In this document: piece after piece, positions 1,379 through 59,031 of the stretch | How positions within the stretch are numbered: position 1 is the first letter of the stretch | Layout of the letters: each line of letters begins with the position of its first letter | Assembly: GCA_965178125.1 (NCBI GenBank) | Contig: OZ237737.1 | Span: forward strand, 620,001 to 684,000 | Length of the DNA stretch: 64,000 nt | Source: Bilabrum cf. latius | Taxonomy: Eukaryota | Reading direction: 5' to 3' | Notes under the pieces: generated by a model | What the model was told of the DNA's origin: nothing | Databases searched by the model: none | The model's input: only the letters and a program-made list of their open reading frames with translations | Translations under genes and position numbers: made by a program

Positions 1379-1531
1379 GATAGTTAATTATTCAGTTACC
1401 GATACTGAAACCATGCCAATAGCCTAATCTATCGATATTTTGGCCTATCTTGACGGACGAATTTTTTGGAGCAGATTGCGTGCACTTTCGCAACTTGATG
1501 AAGCGAGGCCGATTTTTCAAGACACACAATT

Positions 1532-10500: not shown

Positions 10501-11230
10501 TTCGGATGCCCGGCGTGCAGCGATCGCACAGGCGCCACTCAGCGTGTTGCAGGCTTGTAGCCAGTCCTGTGCAGAGCTAGTGCTGCAGGTATGCGACATG
10601 GCGCGGTCGAAGGGTTGGCCGAATGCCGCCGTGTTGAGCGAGTTCGTGTGCCGGTCCGTGCTGGGCAGCAGGTCCGGTGGCAAGCACCGCCAGCGACCAG
10701 GCGCACTGGTGCATAAGGCTAAGCCGGGCGATGCGGCGGTAGAATCGATCGGTATTGGCACGCCTGATGTGCGCGTCAAGCCGCATCACCTGCCGCTGAT
10801 GCTCCAGCGCGAGCCCGGTCTTGGCTTGCTCCTTGCCTTCGCGGCAGACCACGTCGCCGGTAGCAGCGCCGGAGCAGGAGGCCCCACTGCTGAGGGAAGA
10901 GCCGCGGTGTTGGGCCGCAAAGGCCAGTCCACCGCGCTGGATGTGCTGCCCGATGCGTCCACCGTTGCGGCTCTGCTACCCGTGATGCGAAACACCATGC
11001 GGTAGGCTGGGTCCGAGGCTTGGTCTAGCTCCGTGCTTGCCCGGCTGGAGAGGAAGCAAGGAGCTGAGAGCACGGAAGCGGTGCGGCGGGCCATCGATGA
11101 TGTGACTGCGGAACAGGAAGGTAAGCGCGACGGCACTGGCAGGGCAGCCAGCGGCTCCAGCGGGGAGGGAAAGGCAGCCAGGTCTAGTCCCAAGCAGGGG
11201 AGGCGGCAGCGGTTGAGGGATCGTCGGTGA
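1532..11230 (+). CDS. Giant (~3232 aa) protein with CNH-like beta-propeller segments, Vps39/Vam6/TGFBRAP1-like
   Basis: Track ORFs from 1532..1885 to 11033..11230 share one frame and are separated only by about 20 TAG codons; the first TGA is at 11228. Segments TCVHGPLVFLGSSTGDV, IS[Q]IIVVPEWDMIFVLRGGSVLVCNL and PLLVASVGGVLEVRHSLTGELLQS resemble CNH-domain motifs of Vps39/TRAP1. The CDS is well supported, the family call only moderately. Confidence 0.7.
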
Positions 11231-18715: not shown

Positions 18716-20677
<1,962 letters not shown>

Positions 20678-21012: not shown

Positions 21013-24000
21013 TCAAACTACGCCATTGCAGACGTTTTGAATCATGACAAATGTCCCTGGGAGTCTCCTTGCCGCGACCTTGTCTTCTAGCACACCGGCG
21101 AAGGCCTCGCGCAACGTATCCAACAGCAACTTCCTGCCCTTATCGGTGCTTTGCCCGCGCACCACCTTGATCGCAGCCTTGGTAGCTGGAGCGCACCTAG
21201 CATCAATCTGCTGCACCATTCCAGTGGGCGCCCGTCGGCCCGCTGCCACTGCAGCGCATTGAACCACGTGCCCGATGCAAGCGAGCACACCTCGGGACGT
21301 TGCAGCTGTGGAGCTGCTGCTATTGCCGCTGCTCAGCAGTGACGAAGCCAGCGCATCGAGGCACCTGCAGGCAGCGAGGCTGGCAGCACCTGTCTCACTC
21401 GGGTCCACCCGCCTGACAAGCCCGCTACCGCAAAGCGCTTGCAGCAGGCTCTAGGCCAGATCAACTAAATCTGCTAGTGTCTGCGGGGAAACACCGAGAT
21501 CTAGAGCTACTGCCCCAGCAGCGACGACGTCTAGCCCAGTTGATACTGCGGCAGCCAGGTCTGCGTCGTGATTGATGCCCCCACTGTCGGCCAGCTGGTC
21601 TCGGACCGGACTCACTCGCTGGACGGACCTCGTCACCAGCGCTGCAGACACCACCGTGATGTGCCGCAGCTCCGTGAGCGATTCCCTGACCGATGAATCA
21701 CTCGATGCTAGCAATGCTTCTCGCGAGAGCAGCTTGGATGCGAATTGGTGCAACCGGCCGCACCTGCGCACCTCTCTCAAGCACTACTGCACGGATGCTG
21801 CGGGGGCACCTGGTCGTTCGCCTAGCACCTCCACGTCGCTGTCCAGCAGCCGCTCAACGACGGCATGCAGCAGGACACACAGAGCCCTCGCACACACGAG
21901 CAAGATGCTGACGTTCATTTCGCTGCCACTGACCAGCAGGAAGCGGAGGCTCTCGGCAGCACAGTCTTCCAAAGCCACAGAACCACCGCTGGAGCCCTAG
22001 CCGCCCCCAGAAACACCGTGGCCGGCTGCCTTTCCCGCAGTTCCCTTCAGCAGCATGGTCCCAAATCCAGCGAACCGCGTCGCCTCCATAGCTAAAACCT
22101 CGCCTGCGAGTGCCCTTGCCTGCGGCAGCACCTCTGCCACCCCAACGCAAGCAGCAAAGAAGGCTCGGAGGCTCTGCAAGAATAGCTGGGCAGCGGCTGG
22201 AAGCGCCGTATCCGAGTCGTCTTGGCTCGCAGAGAGAGCGGCCTCCTTGGATGCAAGCTGCACGCCTCGAGCCAGCGACTCGAGCAGCTCGATGCACCCC
22301 CGTGCCACAGTGTCTCTGGCCACCCGCTTAGCGGCGGACAGCTGCTTGGTGCTTGCTTGGAGCAGGTGATCCAAGGCACACGACATGGTGGCATCGATGA
22401 GATCCAGACCACCCTCACTCCGCAGACCTGCTGGAGTTGCAGCAAAATGAGCTGCACAGGCGGCGATCAAAGGAATGGCGGTTTGCTTGGTGTCCGCTGA
22501 ATCGCCGCTTGGCCCAGGATTAACAGCAGCGGCATCGGAGCTGGAGCTTCGCGGTGCTGTCACCCCGCCATCCAAATTGACACGGAACCTAGCCATTACT
22601 GCCTTTAGGAGAAGCGGGCAGCTTCTTGAGACCTCGATCATTGAGGCAAGGCCAGACTGAGGCTTCGCTTCGGTGCCGGCCGCCGCATCGGCGGGTATTT
22701 CACCGTCAGCGAATCCATTGGTACTCCCATCACGATCATCCTATTCAGCGCACAAAGTTGCGGCATCGCCGAGAACAAGACCCATCAGAACTTCCAAATG
22801 CTTCAGCATGGCACCAAGAGCCTGCGACAGCTGCTTGGCCTGCTCTGAATACGCAAGAGCCTCGTCATGATGCAGCTCTAGCTCATGGACCGCAGCTGCA
22901 CCCAGCCTTGACCCCGGAGATTCGGCCTGATGGAGCTGCTTGGCTGCAACTGCGGCAGCTTGTCCTGCATCTGCCAAAGTGTTCTTTGCAATCTCGATCA
23001 GCGAGCTGCTGGCTTTCCCCAGCCCGCACCTCGACATCTCCTTGGCACAGTCTGCCCACGCTCGGCGGTCGTGGCTGGAGCACGCTGCCTGCAGCAGTGC
23101 GCCTGTACATGAAACTACTCTGCACAGGGAGACGCACTCTGCAGCAGTCGCGCTAGGTGCCGCTGGGTCAACGCCCGCTTCCACCCTGCTGCGACCAGAC
23201 GAAGGCCTGGGTCGCTTTGAGCTCCCCGGGCGGCCGGCACCCACCGTGGGCGTCCTGGGACTGCCTAGCCGCATGGAGGCTCCGAACTGCTCCTTGCTGT
23301 GGCGATTACGGATAGTAGCGGCTGCACGGGCAAGAAACCGGCCAAGCGGCGACAAAAACAATCCATCTAATTGGGTACCACGCGACAGGTCGTCAGTCCC
23401 GGCACCCGAGGACGGTGTGGCATTCGATGAGCTGAGCACGAGCTGCCAGCGATGCATGGCCTCCGATGGCTGAGCCAGATCAGCCAGCAAGAGCAGGGCA
23501 CTGGCTGCGTATCCATCCCCAGTAGGAGCACCCGTCCGCTGTGATATCTCGAGACCGCGAATAAGGGGCGCAGCAATGCGACGGATGCTCTCATCAGCAA
23601 GCGTGGAGCCTAAAGCAAGCCTGGCTCTCAGGGCCAGTACCAACGGCCGGACAGGGTTGGCGCTTGGGCGCAAAGAACCATCTACGGGGGGCGATGCCGC
23701 AGTGGCCAGAGCAAGCCCAGCCAGCATGCGTTCGTTTTGTGCCAGCGAATCGCGCGTGCCTTCCGTCTGCGAGAGAATGTTGCAAGCGCATTGCAGGCTT
23801 TCCACGGATGGGGAGCAGGCCATCCCGTCCGCAGACCTACCTACCATCCAATCCTGCAGCCAGTTGGGCAGCTCCCACCAGCTCCGGTAGTCCATCGTCT
23901 GGTCGAGCTGGCTGCTAGACTTCTCAGCCAGCCGTCGCCTATCCAAGTCGTCGTCAAGCTGCGCCGCACAGTAGAATGCAGCTTCAGCCAACGCCATGTC

Positions 24001-26966
24001 ACAGGCCTATATGCATGCTGGTAAGGTTGCAGTTCGAGAGCCAGCGCTGCCGTGTGACCCTGCTGCTTCTCGAAGTCCGCTGAACAGCCGCTACCCGATC
24101 ATCTTGCGTTTCTCACTAAGCTCTGCTTGCGAGAAGCTGCCCATTGGCGCGAGCGATTGCTCTGGGACAGCTGTGGCATTCCGAAGGGCGCCTGCCAGCA
24201 TTGCTGCAGCGCATGCCGAGCATGCATCCAGCAGGACCTACGTGTCTCCCGCCTGCCCTGACCGCCTCGCCTTGACCGTCACGACGAGCACTTCGAGACA
24301 CGCTCTCGGCAGCACAGATCCCATGATGTCATTGGCAATTTCTGAAGAGACGCTCTCATCGAAGGCAACAGCCGGCTCTGATCGCCTACGAGTCCCTGGC
24401 CTGTCTGCCCGAACCACGCCAGAGGCCAGCGCAAGGCAATGACAAAGTGCACCGCACAGCTGACGAGCTGCCTTTGGCTGGGACAAGCCTGGCTCGTGTG
24501 TCTTTGGGCTGCCCGCCGCAGCCGCAAGCGTATCTACGACTGCCTTTGCAAGTTGCCTTAGCATCGATCTTCTCGTGCCTCCAGGCGAAGGCTTCTCCCC
24601 CTCCTGCTCCCTCCAAGGCATCCGCAGATAGCCCCCTGCGGCCACTGGCCTCACGCCGCAGGCCTTCGAGGCAGGAATCGCCACCTCTACAAGAAGGCTG
24701 GCAGCCAAGTCCTCTCCCTGCAGACCTTCTTGGGGCTCCCAACCGGGGACACAGCCAGACAGAAGGACAAGAAGCTCCACCGGTCCAGGAGTGGCTGGTG
24801 CTGCCGTTGAGTCGTCCGGGCTGGACGCCAGCTGGATCCAGTCGGTGGACGCAGAGAGCTTTTCCAGGATTGCAAGAACAGGGGCATTGGACACAGGTGG
24901 GCCTCTTGCACTGCGTGCTCGCTGCTCCGCGAGATACTCCTGCAGCTGGGTCATCTGGGTCGTTGTGTCCAAATCACAACCCATGCTGGCCACGCGCAGC
25001 ACCCTGTCGTGAAGGGACAGCTTGCTCGTGGCATCGTTGTCGCTTGGCCCACCTGCCTCCGAGCTGCACGCAGCTGTTGATTCACCAGTCGGGCGCTCAC
25101 CGGTCTTTGGAGAGGGGCTTGGGACCTGGCCGGCTTCGTCCAGGGCCAATTCGGCAGCGCCAGGCGCTTGGGTTCCTAAGTGAGATCCTGAAGCCGGCTC
25201 AGTTGCGGCATCGGCCTCAGCTGGTGGCAGATCGCGACCGTACGTCTCCTCCAGCGCAGACTACAGCGAATCAGAAAGCAAATTCTACGTATTGCTCGCA
25301 GCTGCGCCGCCGCTCGATTGACTGGGTCGTTGACCACGTGCGGGGCTTACGCTGTCGGATTTTGAACCGTGCGAACCAGCCATGTCCTCCTGCAAGTCAC
25401 GTGGAGTCTTCGGCGAGCTAGCCCTACTGCCATCTGGCGCGGCGTGGGACTCCTTCGACTCCGCTGCCTCCTCTGCGCGACTGGTGCCTGTTCCACTTAG
25501 GGTGCGGCTCTACGCACCAACGGCATCACTACGACCTCCATCCGCGGTGTCTCCTGCTTGCACATGAGATCCTACGGCTGCCCGGAGCTAGCTTCTTCTG
25601 GGGATTGACAGCCTCTCCCATACGTGCAGGCACTCGGGCACTTCTCGTGGCATGCCTCCGTCTGGAGTGAGGCCGAGCGAATCGATGCCTGCGCCAGAAG
25701 ATCGAAGCTTGCTTTTGCTTGTAGTACTTGCTCGGCCTCTGGATGCAGTACCACCTAGCTGGGTTTGGACGACATTACTTAGCACGCCTCGGCAGAAATC
25801 GTGCTTCGCGATGTCGGTCCACGTCGGTCGATCGAGAGGATGGGGCGCCAGCAGCCGGTCAAGAAGATCAACCAGCGGCTGACTAGATAGCATGAGGGCT
25901 CGACCAGGCGGAAGGACTGTACCTCGGTGCATGGAATCGTGGGTTGGGTGTCGGCTGTCGGCTGCAGGGCGCACCTCCCCCTCCCCCTGCCAACTGGTCC
26001 GCCGTTCGCCATGTCGTACAGGCCTTGCAGCATACAGCTCGCAGTAGGCAGTCAGCGGGTCCTGAGACACAGACTCGGCCGATTCGAATCGCGCGGACGC
26101 CGCCCGCGAGTCGCTCATCGTCGTTCTCCTACTGCTGCTGCCGCTCTCGTCCAGCATGTCAAGCGCCCGATCCGAGCCACGGGAGGCATTGGCAGCACGC
26201 CCGGCCAGTAGCCGGTACAGAAGCATCCCAACCCTCCACAAATCGCTCGCAATACCGTACAATGGCAAAGGCCCTCGTTCACCGGCAACATCAATTGCTC
26301 CCTCCAAGCACTCGGGCGGCGTGGCTTGCCCGAGCCGAGCCCCCGCACGGGTGACCTTGGCTAGCCTGTCAGCTTCGGCTGCTGTCCGCCTGTCAGAATC
26401 TGCGTCTGCATTGCCCTACATTATGGACACTCTATATGCCGATCGAAAGCTTCCCAGTTTGGCCACTCCATATGAATCCAAGCTGATGTTGTCGGGGTCG
26501 AGACCAGCAAGCAGAACGCCGTTCGCGTGGCACCATGCCAAACCTCTCAAGATGTCGGCAGCGATCAAGTTGACTGCAGATTCGGGAAATGAAGCACTCT
26601 ATCGGAGACATTGTCCAATAGTGTCGCCTGAGCATAGCTCCAGTACGATCCAGTAGTGTCGTGACGTTTCGTACCACCCGTGAAACTTGACTACATTGCT
26701 GTGCCCGCTTAACTTGTTCAAGAAGTACACCTCGGCTTTCGTCTGCGTATAGGATATAGCTGTGAACGATAGGTTCCTGGGTACGATTCAAGAGCACGAT
26801 GGTCATTTGTGAGGAAATTCAGATAGATACTCACTGCAACGCTGTCCAGCTTGTCGACCCGCCGTAGGCACACATACTCGATCTCCTGCCTGACTCTGCC
26901 CTTAAACGACCGAAACTACTTATTTCTAGATCCTTCAAGCTCCCCGTATAGCTGGTACTTCTCCAT
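21013..26966 (-). CDS. ULK4: ULK4/RUNKEL-like pseudokinase with long helical C-terminus (~1953 aa)
   Basis: Exon 1 is 26966-26835 (MEKYQLYGELEGSRNK[Q]FRSFKGR), then a 92-nt intron, then exon 2 at 26742-21013 with NVVKFHGWYETSRHYWIVLELCSG, ILRGLAWCH, SDLWRVGMLLY and LLDRLLAPHPLDRPTW. The FHxWYETS.H.W motif is typical of ULK4/RUK. The frame is interrupted only by TAG until TGA at 21013. Confidence 0.8.
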
Positions 26967-34619: not shown

Positions 34620-34700
34620 GAGAGAGCTGTGCACGCACTGCAAATATGCACACCCGGAATCCGGTTCATTGTTCAAGTTACGGTATACCCTTCCATCATA

Positions 34701-37700
34701 TTACCCCAATGGCAAACTAAACCCAGCAGACCCGTCCGATCCCACCGGCTTTCCACCCGCCCGCATGGGGCTGAGCAGCGTCGAGTGCCTTCCGCTGAGA
34801 CCCACCGCAGATGGCCTCGCGATCATGGTGTGCGACCGGCTGTGCTTCAATCGAGTCCCGCCTGAGGCGGGCGGCTACGCTACGGGCTGTCCCTGTGCTG
34901 CAGCATGAAGGTTCGTCATTGACATGCCAGACACTGACAGTCCAGATCGCCTCCCGCCACGATCTCCGCTGCCAACCACAGCAGTACCGTGATGGACTAG
35001 AGTGAGTGAAGCTGGCGCAACCCCCTGATCGAGCCTGATGCCAGCCTGCAACCCCTGACGAGTTGATCCGCTGGAATATAGCTAGGTCCCTGGGCTGGCC
35101 CGAGAGGCGCCGCCCATGCCGAATACCGCGTGGTCCACCGGTGTGCCTGCCCCCTTCTCGTTCGTGTCTCCATTTTTAGCCGGCGGCTCCATACCTCTGC
35201 TGTTCCTAGCTGTATGGCTGCCGAAAACGTGAGCTAATCCCCGTTGACTTAGCTTCGATGGTGCATGTGTGGTAACGTGCGATTCAGGCTAAAGACGTTG
35301 AGCTTGAGCTTCACCAGCACCACTGGCAGGTCTGCTTTGCAACGTTCGTGGCATATCAACTGCTTTTGTAGGCGAGAGCTGGGAGGGTACTTGCTTGCTC
35401 CATTGCTCGCCATGGTCTTTTTGCATCTGCTTTGACCTGGACAGCTTGAATGGTTTTGCACTCTGCTTGCGGGCCATAGATGGCGATAGGCCGGGGGTGC
35501 TTGCAGCGGGCTTAGCCTTGCCCTTACTTTTGGGTATGCCAGGTACACCTCGGCGAGGAGAACGGGACCGCACTGTTCCGCTGGATCGACCGCCATGCAA
35601 AGTTGATCTATCCCTCGTCTTGGCCGACACACCCAGTGTCTCCTTGAACAAAGGACGAGGAGACCGCGAGCCTTTTGCGGGAGGCCTCATTGAGCTTACT
35701 GCTGGCTCCTTGGATGGGCCACTCTCTAGAGTCGCTCGCGCGGGAGCCCTTCGAGCACCCTACTGCTTCTCTATGGTTGCCAGCCTGGGTCTCAGGCGCT
35801 GGATGCCACTCAAGTTCTTGGTCCGCTCTGCGGCTTTCCTGCTGGCAATCGTGGCTATGGCCTCCTCTGCTTTTTTGATGAGCCCACTGTCCTTCTGCTT
35901 CGACTCTCTGAAGCTCTGCAGTCGCCGCATGGCTGCGCCTGGCTTGATGAGCTCGTTGAAGGCCTATCTTGCCGACTCGCCCGGACTTGGCCGCGATCGA
36001 GCGTGTGCCAACGCGGAGTGCACAGGTGATCGACTAATTTCCCGGGCTCTGTCCGCAGCCCCGCCATGGAATCGTGAGGTAGCCTTGCCAGTTGCAGGGG
36101 CTCGCAACGGAGAGGCAGCGGCGGGTGACACACCACTAGAAGCCCCGGGTGCGGCCATCGCGTCGCCATCTCCAGCCGCGAGGCCGCTCGAGCCCATATC
36201 AAGTGTGGCCAGGCCGCTCGGCAGCGGCGAATCAGTGGCAGGCGACTTGAACACGTTGAGGACAAGCGTGAAGCCTCGATAGCCAGCCCGCCGGAGCGTA
36301 GGCTCATGGAAGTCAGCAAGTACCGGCATCCCGCTGGGTGCGAACGGCAGCTCAGGCAACGGACCAGTTGCACGAGCAATCGAAAGCTACAGATGATCGT
36401 CAACGACTAAGCGCTTGGGTGCTTTCTTCGCTGTTGCACCCTAGCCCTAGGCCTATCCCGGCGTTTCTGGCGAATTCACGGCCTGCGGCAATTCTGCCAA
36501 GGCGCCCAGCAAAGACTGGGCGCGCATGATTGGAGACAGTCCAAGAGCGCCCTGCCAGGGCCGCTGCTCTTCGGCTTCTGATGTGGCGGGGCGACCCGCC
36601 TCAGACCCCTGAGATTCAGCTGGAGCTGTGGGCACATCACAATCAGTTGCCTTTGGGCCATCGACATCAGCCGTCTGGCTACCCTTCCCTTTCCGGCGCG
36701 AAGACAGCGCGGCGAACTTCTTGTGGCCAGAGAGAAGGAGCGGCCGCTCCAGCCTATCCCACACGAGCCGCCTGCCGAGCACGTCACAGTGTGAAGCTTC
36801 GTCAACCGGAGGGGATGCCTTCGACAGCTTCTCAGCGTCAAGCCACCAGATATTCTCATCGTCCGAGGCGTGGCCATACATGACATCACTGTCGTTGTCG
36901 GACACCACGATGCCGTCATCCACATCCTCTGCGTCCTCGTCGCTGCTGTCTGCCGCGGCTGCGGACCCTGCCCTGGCGGCAGCGGCTTTGGAAGCGACAG
37001 CAGCGGCCTTTTTGGTCGTAGTGGTCGCAGCGTCGGCATCAGGAGCCGACACTGCGGGGAACCACGGATCAGCCACGATAGTCACGAGTCGGTCCACCAT
37101 GACGTCGACCTGCCTCTTGTGCCAAGCGTTCTGGTAGGTCAGCGAGGGGTTCGTGTTGACCTCAATGAGCCACACGTTCATGTTGGAGTCCACCATGAAG
37201 TCGTACCCTAGCAGTTCAAAGCGCTGCCTGCTCGAACTTGCAGGCTTGAGGCCGAATCCCCACTCCTTGCAGCCCGCAGCGTACGCTGGACTCGGTCTGT
37301 TCACGTGCAGCGCCCTGAACGTGTCACGTACCAGCTCGCACATGCGGTCCCACACGCCGCCTCGCCCCCACAGCAGCACCATTCCCAGCCTCTTTTCATC
37401 TGCGCTGCAATCCCTTGGCAGCTTGCCCGAGATTGGCTCTGAAGTGGCGTTGGCAGCAAGGTCGGCTCTGGCTCGATCCGTGCCGCCCTTCTCACGAAGG
37501 GGCAATCCATCCGTGCTGAGCCCACGCTAGATCCACCACGCTTCCATCAATACTTTTAGCCTCGCTTCGTCCCATGGTTCCTTTGGTGCGGCGCGGCCAG
37601 TGCTCCCAGGCGTGCCGGCTCCACTAGCGGCAGGCATGGATGGTTCGCTATCAGCATCACTAGCGGCAGAAGTACCGCCAACCCCAACATCGCCGGTCTA

Positions 37701-38663
37701 ATCGCCTTTCTCCCCTGTCCCTGGCCCTCCTCCTCCCAAACCCCGGGTGCCCCCACTAGCAACCTGCGACCAGAAGGCGCTGCCCAGGCATGCCGCGAGG
37801 TCATCCATGCTCGCGGTGTTGCCCTCCTCGTGCTCGCCCAGCCGAGGGTTGTGCACCTGCTGGCAGTAGTTGGTCAGATGCACCAATCGATCCGTGACGT
37901 CCATGCGGAAGCCCTCGCTGGAGGTGCGCAGGTAGGCCGGGCCGTACACGTAGACCGACCCATCGTCATCGATTGCCGTCCAAAGCCTCAGGTCGAATTT
38001 ACGACTGTCGTAGAGCATGGGGTTCTCGATGTACTTCTGTACAAGCCAGACCGGCATCTACCCCATGCTTGCCTTGTTTCCTTTCTTTGCAAGGAACGAC
38101 TCGATAGCACCGAATGTGTCTTCTACCTGAATGCCAATCCCGCGGTTGAGGGAGCTGGGCTTGATCAGCCACATGTTCTTGCAACCTTCCAAGGCAGCGT
38201 ATCGCTGGAATGCATCGGCAAAGTCTGCCCATCCCGCCCACGTCTGCGGCTCGGCCCGTTTCGGTAGCACGACAAATGTCGGCGGCACGGACAGGAAGCA
38301 ATCCTCACGGCGCTCCGTGTAGTACCTGTGCATGGCAGCAAACAGCTTGTCTTTCGAACACAATGGTGCAGTAGAGCCCAGGTGATTAGATGTCTGCCGG
38401 AGGCGAACTTGTACGTGCCGCCTCTTGAAATTCGAGCTTGCAGGCCAAAGCTTCCTAGCTGTCGCTTTCCACACCAGGTTCACCGCCAGGCTCGGTTTCG
38501 ATTCATCGTAACCCCTCTAGTCCTCCTTCTAACGTAATTCGCGCCAACCTCTCCACCACCGGCGCCGCAGCGCTTTTCTGATTGGTTTTGTATTGTTTCC
38601 GCCAAGGTAGGAGTGCCAAATTAGAGGCTTGCCAGCGGGAAGATGGAGCTCTTTCCGATCCAT
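34701..38663 (-). CDS. Tubulin-tyrosine ligase-like (TTLL) protein (~1320 aa)
   Basis: Motifs GGNN..IRKALRRRWW, WLIKPSSLNRGIGI, WLVQKYIENPMLYDSRKFDLRLW, YLRTSS, VHLTNYCQQ and FELLGYDFMVD..VWLIEVNTNP. A single frame from ATG 38663 with many TAGs ends at TAA 34701. Subfamily not resolved. Confidence 0.9.
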
Positions 38664-38849
38664 CCCCGCTCAAGCTAGCGAATTATCTATGTAAGTACGA
38701 TTTTCAACGGAGTACAAGCGAAATATTGGACAGGTACTTCCGTATACCCCTGTTTTTCTTTGCACGCCAAACGACACGGAAGGGTGCAGCCCACTGTACT
38801 GCCATCATGGTTGCGAGAGCGGCACATTGGGTCAAGTTTGAGTAGAAGT

Positions 38850-40011
38850 ATGCTTCCTAGATTCAAACGAATGACAGTTTCTAGTAAATTATTATTCGCA
38901 TTTGGTGTAGGAGCAATATCTCTCTTGGTTGCCTACGTTTTCTTCTTTAGAGGGTTTGAGATTGGCTCGCCGATCGGTCAGACACTTCGAACCGAGCCTA
39001 GGGTTGACATCAGACAGATATTGGCTGCTAGTTTACAGGCAGTGGAGCATGCGGGAAAGAAGTGAGACCTTTTGGAAGCGATAGAAAGTCTATGAACCAG
39101 TGCTTGCAAGGAACTCGGGCCGCTGGGACTGCCTCATCACTTGCTTGTTTGACCGCAGAGTAGTCTCAATTCGGGAGTCTGGATAGCTTGATACAAGGAG
39201 CAAAGGAACGCTGCAGCAGGGTGTGAATGACCCTGTGACAGAAGCGGACATGCAGTCCCACATCACGCTGATGTCTCACCTGAAGCCTCTGTTTCCCAAC
39301 GTGGAGCTGATTTCAGAGGAGCACGACAGCAGAGAGCTACCTAGCCCGGAAATTCCCATCAATCTGGGATACCTGGACGAAGACCTCCCAGTGAGCGGCA
39401 TGGTGAAGCCATCGGACGTGCAGGTCTGGCTGGATCCACTCGACGCGACGAAAGAGTACTCAGAGGGCCTCACTCAGTACGTGACAGTGCTCGCCTGCGT
39501 TGCCGTTCGCGGGGTGCCTGTCGCAGGCGTGGTGCACTACCCTTTCGAGAAGTACTCCATGTGGGCCTGGAAGGGGAGGGGGCTGAGCTTCCGGCCCGCA
39601 GAAGCCCCTGCGGCAGATGCCCCATGGAAGGTGATCGTGTCCCGGTCCCACGCGGGGGACATTAAGGACAACGCGGGGGCGCTCGGGGTATCGGATGACG
39701 GCGTCACTCCCGCTGGAGGCGCTGGTTTCAAGGTAGGCGAGGTTCTGGCGGGGAGGCAGGACGCCTACCTGCACAAGACGAGGATCAAGAAGTGGGACCT
39801 GTGCGCTGGCCACGCTCTGCTGAACGCGGCGGGGGGCAGCATGACGGATTGGCGGGGGAGAGACATAGACTACTCAGACAGCAGCAAGCCCTACGTCCGC
39901 GGTGGCGTGGTGGCGGCGCTGCACAGGCACGGCGAGATGGTAACCAAGCTGAGCAAGCTGGACATCGACGCGGTGGAGAGGGCGAACGCGGCTAGTGCGA
40001 GCAACAAGTAA
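38850..40011 (+). CDS. IMPAD1: Golgi-type 3'-phosphoadenosine 5'-phosphate phosphatase / inositol monophosphatase family (IMPAD1/BPNT2-like, ~354 aa)
   Basis: N-terminal signal anchor (LLFAFGVGAISLLVAYVFFF); 97-nt intron 39062-39158; motifs DPVTEAD, ISEEH, VWLDPLDATKEYSE, IVSRSHAG, AGGAGFK and IKKWDLCAGHA. One in-frame TAG in exon 2. Ends at TAA. Confidence 0.9.
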
Positions 40012-40233
40012 ATCTGGGCCAATCGTCAAACTATGTGTTGTGGGCTCAGAACGCACAAACTATTGAGTAACGTTTTTGACATTCACTTTTTTTGCAGCCC
40101 ACGTGCGACCACAGCCCGGAGCCAGAATTGCCGGCTAAGCCTGGTCGCTCAACGGAACCATGCAATTACAGATACGGTCTTGTGGCAACACACCCCGCGC
40201 AAACCAGTCAAAGTGCCCCATAATTGACTATAT

Positions 40234-47541: not shown

Positions 47542-50500
47542 TCAACCTCTCCGGGCAGCCGCCGATTCAACCTCTCCCTCTCGCAGAACAGCCCTTGCTC
47601 TACGCGCCAGGAGGCCGCGCTGGGCCTCGATCCGCCGCTTCTCCGCCGCCCACCTAGGCTTGTTCACGGCGCTATCGGCCGGCAGTCTTCTCCAGTGGGC
47701 CTCCCCAAGGTATTCATACGCAACCCTCGCGGCTCGCCTGAACGGGGGCTTGCCCTGCAGCTTCTCCTCTAGCTTCTGGCGCACCGCGGCGCTCGCGACG
47801 TCGGACGGGTCGTGGATCACGTCCGACGCAACGTCCTCACCAAGCCCGATCCCGTACTCTGGTAAGGTGTGGTCGAGATCGCCCACTGCGCGCGTGCCCT
47901 CATCACCCCGAGGGCCGCCCCCTTGGTTGCTGCCCCCCTCTTCTTCCTGGACTGAATCGCCGGACAGCTCAGGTGCTGGGGCCACCAATCGACTGGCGGG
48001 ACCTGCTGGCAGCACCTGCACGGCTTGGCCTGGCCGCAGGACGCGCCCGTTGTTGTTCTCCTCCTCTCGGCTGCCAGCACTCCCACCACCGCCGCTGCCT
48101 CTGCCGCTGCTGCCGTCTCCCCATCCATCGTCAGAGCGGCCCGTCGGGGAAGTCCTGCCATCGCCACGGGGCGCCTCGGGGGATTGGTCCAGGGGATATC
48201 CATCAGCACCCCCAGGAGCCATTCCAATGGGCCCCACCCCTGACCCGGCGATCGCGCGTTCGTCCGCTGAGTGCCTCAGCTTGGTAGTGACGAACCCCGC
48301 CAGCCTCGCATCCTTCTCCATGCGCCGTGGGGACACCTTGCCGGAGGGTCCCCCCCGCCACGTGTCCACTGCGTATGTCTCCACCACGCGGTGGATGTCA
48401 GGCGTGTCCAGGGTGTACCTAAGAGGCTCAGTGTTCCGCATTGGGCCTACCTTGGCCGCGGCTTTCCTGTGGATGGACCGCACAGTGTGCTCGGGGCTCC
48501 GCCTGTCGGCCTCACCCCTTTGACCACCACCCCCTCCATCCCTGCGACCGTGTTTGCTGCTCGATGAGTTCCCGCCATCCGACAGCTTGCTGCCAGCATC
48601 GGAATGTGCACCGAGCGTCGACTTGGATCCCCCGTGGGCCCCGCCCCCTTGGAGGTAAGAGTCCTGGGCCACGCTCTCTCTGTCCAAGTCCGTGCCCTGG
48701 CTCAGCTGAGACTGCGCTGCGAGCAACTCCTGCAGCGCGTTGCGCTGCCCTGTTGTGGGCCGCCGCAGCGTGACCGACCCCCTCCTTGCCCTCATCTGCT
48801 GCAGGGTCCTCTGCTTGTCGTCCTCCTTCTTGAGCCGCTGCTCCCGCTTGATGGACGCCTCGGCTCGGATCCTTGCCGTTTCCTTGCGCTTGGCCAGGTC
48901 ACTCAGTCGAGTCACAGTGACGTCATAGCCCTGAGTCAGACCGAGGGCAAGCGATGCGCGTGCGATGCGCTGCCCCTGCGCGTCTCTTTGCAGCACCGCG
49001 GGCCACGGCTGCGACTGCCCTATGCGCGCCACCCGCTCACCCCTTAGGGACCAGATGACAACATCGAGCCCGGCGGCGGTCACGAACACGGGTAACTTGC
49101 TACCGTCCCTTGGCAGCGCAAACGTGATGGATCGGACGGCCTGCCCCTGGGGTGCCACTCTCCACTCCCTCACCGGGTGCAGCAGGCAGCTCGGGTCCCT
49201 CTCCAAGTTCCTCACGTCGAAGATGCGAGCGCAGCCGTTCTCGTATCCTACGAACAGGACGTGGCCCAGCACATCGCATTGCATGGCAGTAACTGCCTGT
49301 CGGGAGTCCCCGGACCAGTTAGGCGAAGAGGGCTTGCAGCGAAAGCCAGTCCGCACCTTGTGTGCATCCAAATTGGCTGACTTGCCGTCTCGATTGCCTT
49401 GCGTCCGGATCGGCGAGGGTGGCGGGGCCATAGGCGTCTCCCCGAATCGACGGGAAGTCACCCTGGGACCAACCCCCATTGGGTTGTTCCCTCGATTCCC
49501 ACTCAGCAGCGCAGCCCAAGGCCCGGCCTTGCTTGCCGGGCTGGACTGTCGCCTGCTCTGCAGCGGCACAGGAACGAACTTGCCGGTCTGCAGATGCATG
49601 GCGTGAATAGAGCCACCTGCAGTACCCGCCAGCAGCAGCGCCTGGTGCGGTACCTCGGCCAGCGACTCGACAGAGGCCGGCAGTAGGCTGCCAATGTCTG
49701 TCGCGTCGCAAATTGTGTGCACAAAGAGCGTCTGTAGCGTCACTGGGTTCCACAGCACGAGCTGCCCGTCGGAGCTCCCAGTTGCGAGCCAGGACAGCCG
49801 TAGCAGCTGCGATGCGGTGGCAGGCCCAGAATGATTCCTGAGTATGGCACTCGAGGAGCCCTCGCCACCGGCCAGGATACACACGAGATCGCCAGACCGA
49901 CCCTTTCCCAGCACATCACCGGTCACCGCGGCACGCTTGCGCAAGGCACCTGCAGTAGTCAGGCCCCGTGAAGGAGGCTGGAGTCGAGAAGAATTCAAAG
50001 CCTTCGGTCGTTGTGCGGAGACTTTGCCTGTGGTCAAGGTCGAGCCACCGGCATCTTTGGCCTCTTGCAAGTTCTCTTGCGCCATCTTTGTCCTGCCGCC
50101 GCGCCCTACGCGACCAGAGCTGGAGCCGGGTGGCTGCGGTTTGCGCTGCTGGTTATCCGCAGAGCCTCCTGGCATGGACTCACTGCGCTGCGCAGCTGCC
50201 GCTGCAGCACCTGCAGCCTTGTCCAGAGTGCTGCTCAACTTCGAGACAGCACGCGTGGCGGTTGTCCTACTTCCCGCAGGATCATTGCTTTCAGGTCCCC
50301 CAGAGAACAATACCACGGACCTACGCCGAGCACGTGCCATCATGTCTGCTCGGCGGCGGTTCTCCTTCTCGATCTCGTCCTGCTTCTGCTATTCTGCCTC
50401 AACGGCACGCACCACCAGCTAGTCCCTGGCAGTGCGCTTCCAGCCCGCCATACGTTGCCGCAGTCGCATGAGCGTCCCGATGTTGGCCTTTCCCTCCGCA

Positions 50501-53500
50501 GGCATGCCGGGCAGCCCAACCTTTGTGCCGTCACTAGCCCGAATTCCCAGCAGATCATCGTCACCACCAGAGCGTGAGACTGGCGGCACGAAGCGCCTAT
50601 CAGGCTCCAGAGGGTCGCCGGCTTCAGACGGCGTGCCATGTGTGGCATTTCCTGGTGCATTGCTCCCAATCTGGGACCCTCCTTTGCTAGTCAAGTCTCG
50701 CAGCTTCCAGGGGTTTTGTCGCATCTGCTTGCGCTCGTCCGCTGAGAAGCCCGCTTCGATCATCTGTTTCCGCTGCTCTGCCGCAGCGACAGCCAGTCTC
50801 TCAGCGGCTCCTCCGTCCAGCCTCCGCGGTGAGCTGCTGTTCTAGGCTTGCAGCTTCATGCGGCGCTGGGCAGACCTGGCAGTGAGGGCGGAGCCTCCAG
50901 CCGGGCCAGCCTGCAGCGATCCATTTGTAACAGACGTGTGGGAGGTGCGTCGACCCCTGGGGAGCTGCAGGGGCTTCTTGCGGCGCTGAGGTGGGCGCGG
51001 CTTGGCTCTTGGTGAGACTCCAAGCGCTTTGGCTCGCCTTGAGCCATTGCCATGGGCATCTGGAGTCGACGACGCGACGATGATGGATCGATCCCCGGTG
51101 ATCGCTGCTAAATTGGCTCCCGCAATGTCCTTAGTTGTTTGCGATGTAGGGTGAAGCCTAGTGAAATCGAGCGATGGCACACCCTGGCCACCGTCTTGCC
51201 GGCCGTCCTTCACTCCCAAGCGGACGGCAGACTCGTCGAAGCTGCGCTCCACCCAAGACCAATCCAGTCCTCCTTCTGAACCGGGTTCCGCGGCCTCGTT
51301 TCTCTGGGTAGCAAACTGTGACGTGGGTGCTGCTGACGATCCTGGCGGGGCTGCCTTGCGCAGCTGCAGCGCAGCAGAAGCACCGTTGCTCTCGTCGCCA
51401 TCCTCAGCCTCCTCTCCGCCCTCGTCGCGCCAAAAGCTCACGAGGCCTCCCCAAGCACCCCCAACGATGGGGTGGGACAGACCACCTGCTGGATGGTAGC
51501 ATGCGCACGTGAGCTCAGAGTCGATCGAAATAAGCCGCCGATTGGGGGCGCCGTTGCTCAAGTTCCACAGGCGGATACTGCCATCAACCGCCCCGGTGAG
51601 CAGGCGACGCCCCTGCGCATCCAGCGAGGCGCACGTGAGCTCAATCGGGGCCGGTCTGCTAGTGGCCCCTAAGCGCAGCTCCGACCCATCCGTGTTGCTG
51701 TTGCGGTGATGCACCCTGAATGACGTGACAACTACACCGGTGCGCAGGTCCACAACAGCGACCCTGCCACCGTACCGCACCGTCACAATCTGGTCGAAGG
51801 CACCTGAGTACATGACCCTCATTACTACGTCGGCATCGCTCGCAAGCAGCACCTTATGCTTCTCCTGGGCCTCCTCGCGATAGTTCCGGAGAGCCCGCTC
51901 GTCGACGGAGCCCCGCCTCGCCCTTGCTTTCTATGCCAGCTGGTCCACCTCGTCCCCGTCCCCCTTCGTGAAAGACTTGTCGCTCTTGGACGATGGGCCA
52001 TCGGTCCGATCCCCGCGCTTCTCAGGGATGGCATCCATCAGGCGCTTGTCATCGTGGAGTGCCTGGGCCAAAGCGCTGCCGGGAGCTGCCGCAACTGCGC
52101 GGACGGCTGCCTTGGCTGCTGTCTCGTGGTTCAGCTCCACTTCTCTTACCCTCCATGCGCGCACATGGGAGCCAAACGTTATGACTGCAAGCCTCTGCAT
52201 GTCAACTGCCAGTCCCGCGCTCTGCCTAGACAAGTTGTCTTGCACCACTTGCAGCTGCCGCAGAGTGCGCGGGTCCCATACGGTCAGCCTGCCCCCCTTT
52301 GTGAGAGTGATGACCTGATGATGCACGTCATTGACCGCAACGTCCACGATGGCTTCCTGTGGCGAGGCAGAGGGTGGGGCCTCGCCCAGCTCAGCCACAT
52401 GGCTCTTTCTAACGAACGCATCCCAAAGCAGCAGCCTCCTGTCGAATCCGCACGTAACCACGCACCGTTCTGATTCGCACCACGCAAGGGCAGTGATCCC
52501 CAGAGGATGGGACATCTCAAAGCGCTTCGTAATCACGCAGTTCTTCACGTCAACTGCTTCGAGAGGCCCGCCTAGACCGGCACATAGCAATCCAAGCCCG
52601 GGTACAGGCAGGAGCTGGGTCACTGCCTCGCAAGTGAGGTTCACCATGCCATACAGCGAGGAGTCGTTTGGGCGCCAGAATCCAACACAGCCAGCAGAGT
52701 CGCCGACAGCGTACACCCGCCATGTGTCTGGGTTTTCATCTCCACTTGCATCAGCCTGCGCTGACTGTGACCGCCTCGTTGGTCGTTTCTTGCGAGATCT
52801 GCGAGATGTTGCAGGTGCCTGCGGAGCTTGAGACTGCTTTCCTCCGCTCCCACTGGTGGCCTTATTCTGTCCACCAGACTGAATTCCGGACGCTGGGACG
52901 CCACGTTTTATCCTGTCAATGATACCCTGAAGACTGCGGCGCTCGTCAAAGCCACTCGATACGAACACACTCACGCAGCACACCGCCCTCGGCACACCAG
53001 GCCCTGTTCCAAAACTAGCCATGGGGCGCAGCGTGGTGGTGGAAGGGTCATGCGCACCTACCCTCGGGCAGCTGTGCTGATCGACTGACATTATATCGAA
53101 CATACCGGGAGTTGACCCCTCCCCGTCATCGTCAAGTTCGCGCGTTGACCAGGGCACCCGTACAGCCGTGCCGACGGCTCGACCACTCGCAAGCTCGGTG
53201 CCTTGCCCAGGCATGCCAGCTCTCAGTCGATCGCCAGCCACACGGCGACCAGTGGGCCGACGCACCTGATCGTGCGCATCTCTGACCTTGACAATCGACT
53301 CATCTGCCTTGACGGTCCTGCCAAACCCGATCGCTCCCTCTACGCCAAGGGAAAAGGGACGGACCGCCTTCCCCCCGGCCCCTGCTTTGCCAGCCCCTGG
53401 CAAGAGCTCTGCACGCCGGGCGGCAGATCCTCCGAGCTGCTTCAACAGCCTGGTGGCGATAGTCTGCGCAGCCCCAAGGGCCGCGCCCCGTCTTGCAGCT

Positions 53501-56500
53501 GCGGCCACATTCATGCGCGCTGCACCCACAGAGCTGCCAAGGCCCGAGATCCCGCTGCTGTCTGTCCCAGCCGCAGCTACCTCCCGCATGGCCTGCTCCT
53601 CGTCACCCATCGCCTTTCGCTGCTGGGCAGCCGCTCGGTGGTGGCTGGCACCGCGCTTCGGTCGTCCCGACTGCAACGGCTGGGCGGCAATTTCCCGAAG
53701 AGACACGAGAGCCGCGCTTCTCCTCTCCCGCGCAGCTGCGTGTTCCGCCCCCACGTCCACTTCGGCGGCCATACTCACCCGCTGCCCCCCTGGCCCTGTC
53801 TTCTTCGACAGAGATACCTGTGTGGCTGCGTCAGCAAGATGCTTAGACTACTCTAGCAGCCCATCCAATCGCAGCTCAGTCTTCTCCTGGCCCTGCCGGA
53901 TCTTGGAGAGTTTTTGGTGCCGGGTGACCATTTCCCTCAATGAGGCAGCCCCGTCAGCCCTGTACCGGCTCAGGTTGAACACGCGACACAGCCGGTCGGA
54001 TGTCACGACGAGCAGGCACAGGCTTACCGGGTCGAAAGCTAAGCCAGCAACTGAAACGGCTGCTGTAGTCTGGTCGATCCGGTTCGTGCTGTGCCTAGTT
54101 GTGCCAAACGAGGCTGCCTGAGGCCCAACCGTGTCGTTGTACGAATTTCCGCTCGACTCGCGTGTCGATCTGTTGCCTCGCTCGACTCCATCTGGCTCGG
54201 CAGCTGCTGCCTGCGAACTGCTCCGCGAGCCGGAGTACAGGCCTTTCTTGGCATTTTTCCGACCACTGTGCGCAGCTTTGGGCTGCAGTGCGGCCGCGAC
54301 AATCTGGCGTGCCTTAGCTCTAGCTTCTCCCAGAGTCATACCAGCCAAAGCTGGGTCGGAGCCGAGCTTCCTGCTAGCAACAGCGCGACGCTTCTGATCC
54401 GCCAAGTCATCCACAGCTGAAGAGCCGAGATGACCGGTGACTGTTGGTCGAACGACGTTTCCATGTTCGTCACATAGACCAAACTCGGCAGGTTTGTCTG
54501 AAAACGGCAGGGCATGCTTGGGAGGGTTTGCCCTGGTGCCCACATCAAGCGTGAGGGCGTGCTGCAGCGTATCTGCCCACAAATGCACGGCATTCGTTCG
54601 GTACCCCACGGCGTACCCTTGCAGGGCAGGCAGCAGAACGAAGCAATTCGGTCGAACTCCGCCGTTTTCGGCCAGGACAGACGAGCCTGGCGTGGTCGGG
54701 TTGGGCGTCTCGATCATGTAGGTGGCTTGCGCCCGCTGGACCGCCAAGGCATTCCCAGCCTCCCGCAATAGGAAACTCACGTACTCAGCGAAGCTCAGGG
54801 TCTACGATGAGTCTGCATCCATTCGGTGGAAGCTCGCAACGATTGCTTCCGCTGGCAAAGTGCTGAGGCGAGTGAGCAGACCCACAAACTCTGTCTCTGT
54901 GATTCCCTCCTGCGGATGCAGCACACCGGCGCCGATCGCCATTCCATGAGAGCTTGCAGCACCAGACATGTCAGCCCCATTGCTTCCATCGGCATTGCTC
55001 CCATCCGCACCGCTGCTGCCGTGCGTGCTGGATATGTGCCGGAACAGGGGCTCAAGCACAGGCAAGTGGGCCGTGATGTCATTAATGGGATCTGCCTCGA
55101 AAGACTCCTGGAGCTGACGCAAAGCAGGAAGAGGGGTGGAAGCAAGAGCATGCCCCTGCCGAACGCCGATCTCGTAAAGGCTCTCCGCGGCCCGCGTCTC
55201 CATGGGGTACACGTCCGCATCGATCCTCCACTTCACCCGAACCGCAGCCCCAGGACAAGGAGTACCGCTGATCGAGACCTCTACTTCATCGCCATCGGAT
55301 GACCGTGATGAGAGCTGCTCGCTCTTCAAGTTGATGCTCGCCTCCACGCGGTCTAGCTGCTCGGTCGCTCCAGTTGGTGCACCGCTAGGCAGGGTACCGT
55401 GCAGCAGCAGGGGGTGCTTCAATCTCACGCGCTGGGGGGTCTAGAGCGCCTCAAGCACAGCAGGGCTGGGGCGCAGGGGGAGCCAAGTGTCAAGAGCAGC
55501 AGGTCGCGTCACCCCTCCACTCCGTCGGCGACGCCTTGCTCTTGCCGCGTCAGCTCTTGCTGCAAGTTCGACCCAGTTGTGGGCAGATATCTCTGGCACG
55601 CCACCGTTAGCGGTGGTGAAACCCACCGGCATCACGCTCGCCAGAGCCACGGCCCCGCCCCGAGATGCGACATCTCCCATCGCAAGCGCAGGACCGAATA
55701 CGTTAGAGTGGGGATCTGAGCACGGATGCACGGGGAGGCATTGCGGCACATCTCCGAGCTGGATGGTCACGCTTCTCCTCTCCATCGCGGACTTGGCGAC
55801 TGGGGCACCTGGCGCTCGCCCGGAACCGGCAGCTTCGCTCTCCGCGTCTCCTCGGCTGCTGCCGGATGCCGTAGAGGCACCATCGGCAACACTATCCCCG
55901 TCCCTCCCCGAGTCCTTGGTTGCTCCACCCTTCCCGCGAGCGCCAAACACGTTTAACACGCGCGTCGCCTTCTGCTGCGTGGACCGCTTCTTTACGCTGT
56001 GCTTCGATTGGGCGCGCTGGGTGACCTCTTCGGCCGCCGCTGCTGCAAACAGTCGGTGTCCGAACACGGCAACCCCGACGTGCAGGACACACGTACCCAG
56101 CAAGATCTGCCTGCTGGAATCGGACGCGTGCTTGGCTCCGCCCACGCGTGGAGAGGCCCCCTGCAAGATTGCTTCCTCCTCTGGCAACACAACCGAGGAC
56201 CGTCGGCCTCTTCGCACCGCTGCTCCTCTGGCAGCAGAGCTGTCCCCGCTGCCCTGCTGCCCCAAGGCTCCCGCCTCGGTGTCGAACTCGGCGTCGTCGT
56301 CAGATTCATCCAGCACTATCCTGCCCTGCTGCCTTGGCTTAGAACCCCCACCCCCGCGCCTGCCTTGCGTGCCCCCACCCTGCGACCTGCCGGCTCGCCG
56401 GTCCTGTCCCTTTCCGAGTACATGGGCTGCGGCAGAGATGCCACCGCCACGCACCGAGTACAACGACAGCTGAACCTGCGAATCAGCGCAAAAGTTGTGC

Positions 56501-58959
56501 AATCTCACTCGGAACACCTGCCTGAACTTGGGCCGAAGGGACTGGGGCACACTGACAGCCGCTGTCCTGGAGAGCAGCACCTCCTCCCGTCGCGGCTTGA
56601 TGGCAAATAGCATCTGCTAGCCAGCCTGCTACCGCTGATCAGCGTCTAGACGTGGCGCAACCAGCTGCAGCCCAACGGCGATGTCCTCGGTAGTGGTTCG
56701 CCGTTCCTCTTCCTCAGCAGCGTGCTCCGCCTGCACTGCTGCAAGGAGGGCTGTAGCAACGCTGCCGCGACGATGCCTTGCCGACCTTGCGGCAATCTGC
56801 TTGCTGCGCGCAACTGCTCGAGTGCGATCCGAGTCTGGATCGCCCGCAAACCGCACCCCCTTCTCCTCCCCTTTGCCACCGTCCTCCACCGCATCCTCAT
56901 CTCCAACTATGCCCGCGTGGTTTGCCTTCACCTCATGATGATGGGCGGCAATGCTGCCTCTTCTGTGCATGCTCTGGGCCACGTCTCCCATGCCTAGCTC
57001 AGCACTGTCTCGACCTGAGCCTCCCCCATCTGGAGAAGGCGCTCGGAGGGTTACAGAGAACCCTGTGCCCGCGCTTTCGCCCTTCTTGCCTTGGTTCGAA
57101 CCACCAAAGGCCGCCTGCTCCAAGCTGGCCACGCTGGACGTCGAGCCCCGTCTCTGCTTCTGCATCTCGATGGCCTGCTTTGACTCGTGGTGTGCAGCGC
57201 CGGAGTGCACCCGCTGGGTCATGACGGCGTCCACGCCAGATCGCAGAGCCGAGATCTTGGTGCGGGTGGAGGCCGTGACAGCCTTGGCGTCAATGCGTAG
57301 GGAAGCAGGGGCAGCGAGGCTTCCGATCGCATCGGCGCTGGCACTGCTGCGTCTTCGCTGGCTAGTCTGATTCGTTGACCTACCAAGCTTTGCGCTGGTG
57401 CCAACCTACTCCAGCTTCCTCCGGAGGATGTCCACCTGTCGGGAGGCAGGGTCCTGGGCCAGCATGTTGCCACCCGAGCTGCTCGCCCCGTGCAGCAGAG
57501 CATCGTGCAGCAGGACGAAGGAGGGGGGCCCGCCGTGCAGCATCGCGTCCAGCTGGTGCTTCCACAGCTTGGCACCCCAGCTCCTTGCCTCGAACCACGC
57601 GTCCTCCTCCATGACCTCGTGCGCCTCTGCCTCCGTCATAGGGGGGCCCCCGTTAGGAGACCCAAACATGCTACGGGCCGTCATGCCGGGAGTGGAGGCC
57701 AGCGCGCTGGTATCTAGCCCTGTGCCAACGATGGTAGAGGGGCAAAGGGGTCCGCTCACCAGCAGCCGCTTGGCAGTGAGCGCGTCCTCCACGTCAATCG
57801 ACGTCACGATGCGACCTGGGGCGGCTATTGGAGTCAGGACCACGTCTGCCTCCCCGCCCGCATCCCCTGCTTGGGACCGACTCGTGGACAAGCCGCCGTC
57901 GAGGCCGCCTTCCTGTCCCCCGTGGCCAGAGTCCCGGTCGACCATCGGAGACACGGCCGCTGCAAAGTGGGCCCCGAAACCACCGGGTGTGGGGGCAGAC
58001 CCCAATTCACCCCTGCGCCGCCTGGTGGATTTCGACCCGCCGTACCGTCCATGCCCCGAGCTACGCGCTCCGTCTCCGTCTTGCAGAGCCCAGGCGCCCC
58101 TCACCACGCGAGGACCACCCGCCACGCCCGCGCATATCGCGTCCATGGGATCGGCCATGCGAGCAAGCCCATCGATCAGTGCCTCTCTGTCGCGGAGAGC
58201 CTTAGACATGCTCCTCGACCCGGAGTCTGCGCCCCTGCCCGACCGCCTCGAGGTCGAGCTCCGCTTGGCCTCCTCTAGTCGATCCATCCTCGTGTCGGAA
58301 TCGTCGCGAAGCAGCGCGAACCGCTGTTCGACGTCGTCAGCGCGTGGAGAGACAGCACTTTGTTTCGTCTGAATGGCTACTCGCGCGGCTCGCCTGGTTG
58401 TCTGCGTGCTTTCCCTCCCTATGCCCATCGTGGCGACGACCTCGGCTCCCAGCACCGAGCGCAACAAGCGGCTTCGCTTCTGAAACGTTCGTCTTGTCCA
58501 TTGCTTGAACCCGCGCCAGCGATTGGCAGCAGCTCTGTCATTGGCTAGAAGTTCGGCTTGCTTGTAGTCAAACTCTCCGGTCGATTCGGTGGAAGCTGAG
58601 CGAAGCCTATCAGCTCCGCCTGCCTTTGGGCTAGAGGTACGCTTTTGGTGATCACGAAGCGCATCTGCGGCATCATCGCGCTTTTTGAGCTCGTACTTCT
58701 CAACATGCTCAGCCAAAGCCTGGGCAACATGAACAGCACGAGCAAGGGGCCGCAAGTCTGCCTCGTTTATCTCAATCGTTAGAGTAACGCTCGATAGCGT
58801 CGTCCTGTCCTCGCTGATCGCATATGGGCCTGGATGAATAGAGTTCATCTTTGTGACGCAGTGCGGGTTGTATGCCCGGACCACTACTGCCGCGTTTCTT
58901 GTTTGGAGCTTTGTGAATCGGCCAACGGATCCATGCGGTCGCAACCGCCGCAACCTCAT
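47542..58959 (-). CDS. Giant (~3770-3800 aa) EF-hand + WD40 protein, WDR49/WDR64/EFCAB8-like
   Basis: Nine track ORFs lie in one frame separated only by TAG. EF-hand FHRMDADSS[TAG]TLSFAEYVSFLL is followed by WD40 repeats (VVTCGFDRRLLLWD, GRLTVWD, LLTGAVDGSIRLWN, LATGSSDGQLVLWN). Start is ATG 58959 or 58848. Ends at TGA 47542. Confidence 0.78.
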
Positions 58960-59031
58960 GGTCGCACCACGGCGACCACAGGACTTTCTTTGCGGATTGA
59001 ACGTCTAATCATCAAATTATCAATGATTTCA

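Follow-up and report, generated by a model that had tools for sequence, protein, structure and literature searches.

The 64,000-nt stretch considered here (contig OZ237737.1 of assembly GCA_965178125.1, positions 620,001 to 684,000; hereafter the window, in whose own coordinates all positions are given) raises the question of which stop codons still terminate translation in it. Two of its genes, one for a tubulin-tyrosine-ligase-like protein (TTLL) and one for an inositol-monophosphatase-family protein of the IMPAD1/BPNT-like kind (IMPAD1), end at TAA, and with the standard stops the longest frame anywhere in the window is at most 948 codons. When TAG is taken as sense, frames of 3242, 3824, 1924, 1322 and 1326 codons emerge, each closed by TGA or TAA, and the fact that such long frames exist only when TAG is read through supports UAG as a sense codon. 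Pfam and Protein Data Bank (PDB) comparisons identified the genes of the window as ordinary eukaryotic nuclear genes. We consider it very probable that the window comes from the nuclear genome of a heterotrophic, Cafeteria-related stramenopile with a variant code, one that uses UAG as a normal glutamine (Gln, Q) codon contributing about 12% of the Gln codons here, while UGA serves as the main and UAA as the minor terminator; the matching tRNA and release factor (eRF1) are parts that we infer. An earlier interpretation made from the letters alone (the sequence-only reading) had proposed this same uncoupling of UAG from UAA, and within the window it held up, with TAG standing in Q columns, UAA never internal, and two RNA contigs stopping 3-30 nt after a UAA.

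What does TAG encode? Evidence comes from conserved columns in two protein families. For the KamA-like (lysine 2,3-aminomutase-like) radical-SAM gene (14872-16525, plus strand, with an intron before 15302), the protein was written with X at each TAG and aligned to 119 homologues, with P0008, a 99%-identical sister-strain fragment, left out. Codon 108 of this gene (TAG at 15368..15370, plus strand) falls on a column holding Q in 115 of the 119 homologues, including that of Cafeteria. Codon 187 (TAG at 15605..15607, plus strand), beside the CxxxCxxC motif, meets H in 113 homologues, Q in 5 and F in 1; with Q as the second residue, this site is compatible with Gln, not diagnostic of it. The inositol polyphosphate 5-phosphatase domain was compared by BLASTP with the best 150 representatives, and here a TAG at 63302..63304 (plus strand) lies in the conserved GxQE motif. 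Of the 88 alignments that extend over this column, 74 have Q, 11 a gap and 3 another residue, which gives Q in 74 of 77 ungapped cases. A second TAG of the same domain, at position 221 (63800..63802, plus strand), sits in a variable column (E 36, D 32, Q 30); of the eight best matches listed, six have Q, the closest two among them. Furthermore, in two PDB chains of human ULK4 a Q stands opposite a TAG in the kinase domain of the ULK4-like gene (26599..26601, minus strand).

The structural comparisons reached few other sites. The PDB alignments of IMPAD1 begin beyond the TAG in its exon 2 (39184-39186, plus strand), the KamA alignment shows just the TAG beside the CxxxC motif, and the GxQE motif lies outside the coverage of the 5-phosphatase alignments listed. 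Homologue searching returned no match for the ULK4 kinase region and only two matches for the proteasome subunit PSMD13, for which an atlas search with a relative confirmed the family, although without useful taxonomy; no TTLL relative was found among metagenome contigs. The possibility that UAG stands for a different residue, such as Leu (known from the rhizarian exLh), Ser (known from Scotinosphaera) or one of Glu, Lys and Tyr (found in certain ciliates), can draw on those TAG columns in which homologues hold H, E/D, A/S/T or K. It is nevertheless highly improbable, since the near-invariant columns (Q in 115/119 and 74/77) and the Q of human ULK4 contradict it and no column consistently indicates a residue other than Gln. 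On these alignments UAG is a sense codon for Gln, as Gln alone fits the invariant columns. The bases around TAG (+4 and -1) also resemble those around CAG, and TAG is spread along the genes (26, 20, 14, 14 and 17 by gene quintile) with no depletion at the 3' end, so that nothing suggests a special context for read-through.

If UAG is sense, which codons stop translation? Nineteen gene ends can be defined in the window, of which 17 are TGA, two are TAA and none is TAG. TAA at 34701-34703 (minus strand) closes TTLL and TAA at 40009-40011 (plus strand) closes IMPAD1, both codons being verified as the sequence-only reading had placed them, and its count of 17 remaining ends at TGA was likewise reproduced (16, including a putative LYR-motif gene at 45231, plus the cyclophilin gene with TGA at 13935-13937). 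In the 18,307 in-frame codons of 19 genes (about 55 kb) there are 101 TAG, 0 TAA and 0 TGA, in agreement with the earlier statement that many TAG and no TAA occur in frame over a similar length. TAG makes up 12.5% of the Gln codons in this set, and 18 of 21 genes have it in frame; for in-frame TAA the 95% upper bound is 3% of the TAG frequency. The genes lacking a coding TAG are those for polyubiquitin, for one EF-hand protein (in its visible exon) and for cyclophilin, whose single TAG sits in an open reading frame (ORF) stretch that is probably intron. UGA is thus the main terminator, never found in frame, and UAA the minor one (2/19); within the window, both are terminators.

The two genes ending at TAA are well delimited. 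The TTLL coding sequence (CDS; 34701..38663, minus strand) runs from an ATG at 38663 to the TAA over 1321 codons, the TAA included, lies inside the 1322-codon frame and contains 14 in-frame TAG; its product matches the Pfam family TTL (E 4.6e-43) as well as TTL and TTLL structures in the PDB. IMPAD1 (38850..40011, plus strand) consists of exon 1 (38850-39061), a GT..AG intron (39062-39158) and exon 2 (39159-40011), and matches Pfam Inositol_P (E 2.2e-41) and a 3'(2'),5'-bisphosphate nucleotidase in the PDB (E 1e-30), with homology extending to about 22 residues before the end of the protein. Beyond the two terminal TAA the next in-frame stops are 71 and 72 codons away (72 for IMPAD1). After the IMPAD1 TAA, GC3 falls from 0.76 in exon 2 to 0.53 in the same frame downstream and G+C from 0.62 to 0.51, which bears out the compositional shift noticed earlier.

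It might be argued that both UAR codons encode Gln, as in ciliates (table 6), oxymonads and some ulvophytes, that TAA is scarce merely because the genome is GC-rich, and that translation continues past the two terminal TAA as far as the next TGA. TAA is indeed the rarest of the three triplets on both strands (379, as compared with 977 TAG and 1577 TGA) at a G+C content of 61%. However, A-ending codons are not rare in these genes: the in-frame ratios of A-ending to G-ending codons range from 0.155 to 0.88 (CAA/CAG 0.28, GAA/GAG 0.35, and TTA/TTG lowest at 0.155), and at these ratios a sense TAA would be expected in frame 16 to 89 times for the 101 TAG, against none observed (P(0) = 1.5e-7 at the lowest ratio). 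We also counted, in all six frames, the stop-like triplets with at least 100 open codons on each side, and these numbered 41 of 977 TAG, 6 of 1577 TGA and 1 of 379 TAA (p = 2.8e-5 for TAA vs TAG and p = 1 for TAA vs TGA, Fisher test). The single TAA is a shadow on the strand opposite the KamA gene. At a threshold of at least 50 open codons on each side 16 TAA remained; a check of the frames by hand showed that two of these are the terminators and that the others lie off frame or on the antisense strand, and in no gene's frame does a TAA link two long open flanks. TAA behaves like TGA and unlike TAG. This open-flank test was used in place of a log-odds flank score based on codon usage, which was dropped as too weak at a GC3 of about 65% (coding on both sides at 19 TAG, 0 TAA and 0 TGA). 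Taking into account, in addition, that the next stops lie 71-72 codons on, that RNA contigs end 3-30 nt past the TAA and that GC3 drops there, we regard a code with both UAR codons as Gln as very unlikely.

Do transcripts agree with these gene models? Contigs of public sequencing runs (X1-X8) were compared with positions 27000-46999 of the window. Those of X5, X7 and X8 skip GT..AG introns, and these runs consequently hold spliced RNA whatever their labels. Four such introns of 85-97 nt were recovered; three of them (39062-39158, 45026-45116 and 46665-46749) occur in three runs apiece and the fourth (44838-44924) in two runs, so that the description of the organism as intron-bearing is correct, as is that of a GC-rich genome (the window has 61% G+C). 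Two further joints, 28041-31369 and 28046-42549, were rejected as introns because they are low-complexity cross-matches. For TTLL, a contig of X5 (34671-38743) shows 0 differences from the genome, retains all 14 TAG and stops 30 nt past the TAA, those 10 codons being without a stop. For IMPAD1, the contigs stop at 40014 (X5) and 40016 (X7, from another study), i.e., 3 and 5 nt past the TAA; the ends from the two studies agree within 2 nt, at a place where the unspliced contig of X6 (32854 to 40332) continues past the TAA.

The same contigs bear on the notion that the TAGs are never translated as such, whether through pseudogenes, sequencing errors or RNA editing of UAG to CAG. No point in support of it was found, and it is scarcely conceivable in view of 101 TAG in 18 of 21 genes whose frames are otherwise intact up to 3824 codons. 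Contigs of four independent runs are identical to the window letter by letter, with no other letters, and public protein fragments nearly identical to the window's proteins are interrupted at the same codon; U-to-C editing is excluded because the RNA contigs keep the genomic letters, including all 14 TAG in the TTLL contig.

A subtler objection is a context-dependent code of the Condylostoma or Blastocrithidia type, in which UAG would be Gln inside genes and a terminator near the mRNA 3' end, with short 3' untranslated regions (UTRs) helping the distinction. Most of the 3' UTRs inferred from contig ends are indeed very short (3-5, 11 and 30 nt), although one measures 194 nt, and Swart et al. 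are reported to have tied, in 2016, the short 3' UTRs of Condylostoma to position-dependent termination; moreover, the gene at 45295-46113 (minus strand) has a TAG 4 codons ahead of its TGA. Yet all 19 gene ends can be explained without a TAG terminator. Where a contig end is resolved (four genes), 58-431 codons separate the last TAG from the TGA or TAA, TAG is not depleted toward 3' ends, and TGA and TAA are never internal, all within this one window. We therefore judge such a code to be unlikely.

As for the 3' UTRs themselves, the 11-nt value belongs to the gene whose end is at 28985 (28983-28996), the 30-nt value to TTLL and that of 3-5 nt to IMPAD1, whereas the long one of 194 nt is that of the gene with its end at 29185 (28991-29187). 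Convergent transcripts overlap or almost touch, as seen in the stops at 34619 and 34701, which are 81 nt apart, and a single 4.5-kb contig merges the genes at 40.2-44.7 kb.

Several points nonetheless weigh against UAG as a plain Gln codon beside a retained UAA terminator. The zero count of in-frame TAA arises partly by construction, the reading frames having been delimited by TAA and TGA, although the open-flank test, the codon-ratio expectation and the transcript contigs are independent of that delimitation; and the scope is one 64-kb window with 19 gene ends, two of them TAA. A number of TAG columns are uninformative or do not hold Q: KamA codon 187 faces H, 5-phosphatase positions 27 (A/S/T) and 221 (E/D/Q) are, like position 120, variable, and the sites in GatA, Yju2 and the TTL domain fall on variable or gapped columns of the PDB alignments. 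The assignment of runs to RNA or DNA is a guess, X5 being labelled 'RNA? (probably DNA)' though its contigs are spliced, and contig ends are weak evidence for mRNA ends. UAG may also terminate in some contexts elsewhere in the genome. Finally, a tRNA scan of the 64-kb window yielded 0 genes and the eRF1 gene is absent from the same 64 kb, so neither the proposed tRNA nor the proposed eRF1 change is seen here; nor does the window contain an rRNA gene.

Regarding the mechanism, a Gln code for UAG with UAA kept as a stop would be explained, by analogy with other UAG-only codes, by a tRNA-Gln with the anticodon CUA that reads UAG only. Such a tRNA could arise from tRNA-Gln(CUG) by one anticodon change, and as its C34 would not pair with A, UAA would stay unread; the argument on CUA versus UUA wobble and its experimental basis are given in PMC11687900. 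At the same time, eRF1 would have lost the recognition of UAG and kept that of UAA and UGA, and no tRNA(UUA) would be expected.

Which organism carries this code? Only two genes gave named matches, and their closest named homologues are all from stramenopiles. The best named match of KamA is Cafeteria roenbergensis (74% identity), with Heterosigma akashiwo in the cluster at 62%, and that of the 5-phosphatase is Cafeteria (roenbergensis/burkhardae) at 55%, with Cantina marsupialis at 46%. Cafeteria and Cantina belong to Bigyra, and this best-hit placement from two genes would put the host near the bicosoecids. Following Cafeteria, the KamA matches are patchy, comprising animals, fungi, algae and bacteria at 57-64%, and the eukaryotic distribution of this gene looks unusual. 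Both Cafeteria homologues, predicted at full length with 501 and 1550 residues, carry Q at the two invariant columns. Such full-length proteins fit a standard code in Cafeteria, which we presume it uses, and a change of code that would have followed the split. The sequence-only reading had suggested an independent origin, and this is supported by the stramenopile identity of the closest named homologues, far removed from Iotanema (Fornicata) and from the ciliates that PMC11687900 lists for UAG-only Gln.

Proteins in public contig sets are 97-99% identical to those of the window, and they illustrate the practical consequence of the variant code. P0126 (98% identical; 5-phosphatase locus, 63140-63997) ends directly before the TAG at 63800..63802, and P0008 (99% identical; KamA locus, 15047-16525) begins 12 codons after a TAG; to judge from these fragments, standard-code gene calling truncates the proteins of this organism. 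In a low-complexity linker, P0276 (97% identical to PSMD13) reads 'SA' in place of the window's TAG-Thr, and from this mismatch sister strains differ at some TAG sites. Contigs without a single difference from the window are found in runs carrying four organism labels and coming from four studies (X1-4, X5/X8, X6 and X7), with small shares also in one 'protist metagenome' and one 'algae metagenome'. It may be that the flagellate commonly shares cultures with other organisms, or that the run labels are synonyms.

The remaining gene content is as follows. The 3242-codon frame (1502..11230, plus strand) is intron-free, contains 20 in-frame TAG and ends at TGA; a Pfam search gave no match, and its product is rich in Ala, Ser and Gly. 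PSMD13 lies at 11509-12738 (minus strand), and the cyclophilin gene was recognized by Pfam and PDB comparison and from the ORF listing of 12.7-15.0 kb. Polyubiquitin (18716-20590, minus strand) has eight near-identical units followed by an extra Cys and TGA, with 0 TAG, and its repeats produce long opposite-strand shadow frames with spurious Pfam matches. The ULK4-like kinase (21013..26787, minus strand) occupies the 1924-codon frame with 13 in-frame TAG and a TGA end, and a WD40-repeat giant (47542..59016, minus strand) the 3824-codon frame with 11 in-frame TAG, also ending at TGA. A mitochondrial-type GatA, Yju2, an actin-related protein, NSUN5 and two EF-hand proteins were likewise identified by Pfam and PDB comparison. 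The putative LYR-motif (ISD11-like) gene with three exons at about 44.7-45.2 kb, so named from its spliced translation, is visible only through the introns of the spliced contigs.

How does this code compare with those already known? Codes that split UAG from UAA are few, for they need an eRF1 able to distinguish G from A in the third position of the stop codon together with a tRNA reading UAG only, and each independent origin amounts to a natural experiment on the co-evolution of eRF1 specificity and suppressor tRNAs. That TAA is the rarest triplet and yet TAG was reassigned fits poorly with a simple story in which the rarest stop is lost first. In practical terms, standard-code calling breaks the genes of this organism at every TAG; annotation, phylogenomics and contamination screens need table 15 for it. 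In the full-text literature searched we found no report of a nuclear code change in a bicosoecid, in Bigyra or in any other stramenopile, most subscription journals lying outside its coverage; this agrees with the earlier remark that no report was known for such a lineage, without being proof. A 2025 paper on non-canonical codes in Heterolobosea, cited in the reference list of PMC12574857, concerns another supergroup. Whether stramenopiles here show a nuclear stop-codon reassignment for the first time, with the rare UAG-only Gln code having arisen independently once the lineage had split from Cafeteria, in a GC-rich, UGA-dominated setting with 3' UTRs of perhaps a few nt and in an organism perhaps overlooked as a culture co-inhabitant whose genes are truncated in public protein sets, seems to us an evenly balanced matter.

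The assignment itself is known already. According to PMC11687900, UAG alone encodes Gln in Iotanema spirale, in Protocruzia tuzeti and in two lineages of phyllopharyngeans, and the assignment is reported there for Hartmannula sinica and Trochilia petrani; the case of Iotanema is reported in PMC5304391, where a T32G substitution in the GTS motif of eRF1 is proposed to explain its lost UAG recognition. Compared with the table 15-like code of Iotanema, Protocruzia, Hartmannula and Trochilia, the window has the same assignment, only UAG being changed to Gln and UAA being terminal, not internal. UAG is likewise widely used: it accounts here for about 12% of Gln codons and occurs in 18 of 21 genes, and in the two ciliates for 18.5-31.8% of Gln codons and in 78-84% of genes (PMC11687900). 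The terminators differ, UGA being dominant here (17/19) in a 61% GC genome, whereas UAA is dominant in the ciliates (same source). The host, a stramenopile near Cafeteria, is of a different lineage from the table 15-like systems, which supports an independent origin and sets the present case in a different supergroup branch from the known UAG-only cases.

Other codes share parts of this pattern. UAR codons both encode Gln (table 6) in many ciliates, Hexamita, Streblomastix, ulvophytes and Amoeboaphelidium (PMC5304391 and PMC11687900); there, as here, a stop has become Gln, with a Gln tRNA of altered anticodon as the likely origin, but UAA is not sense in the window, with 0 in 18,307 codons and two gene ends. 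In the UAG-only codes for Leu (the rhizarian exLh and three phyllopharyngean ciliate metagenome-assembled genomes) and Ser (Scotinosphaera), described in PMC5304391 and PMC11687900, UAG is likewise uncoupled from a UAA kept as a stop, and the residue is what distinguishes the present code, namely Gln. With Condylostoma, Parduczia and Blastocrithidia the window may share very short 3' UTRs, but its UGA and UAA are dedicated terminators never found in frame, and there is no sign of termination at UAG. What is new, as known here from 64 kb, is therefore not the assignment, which these systems already exhibit, but the lineage in which it occurs and its GC-rich, UGA-dominated setting.

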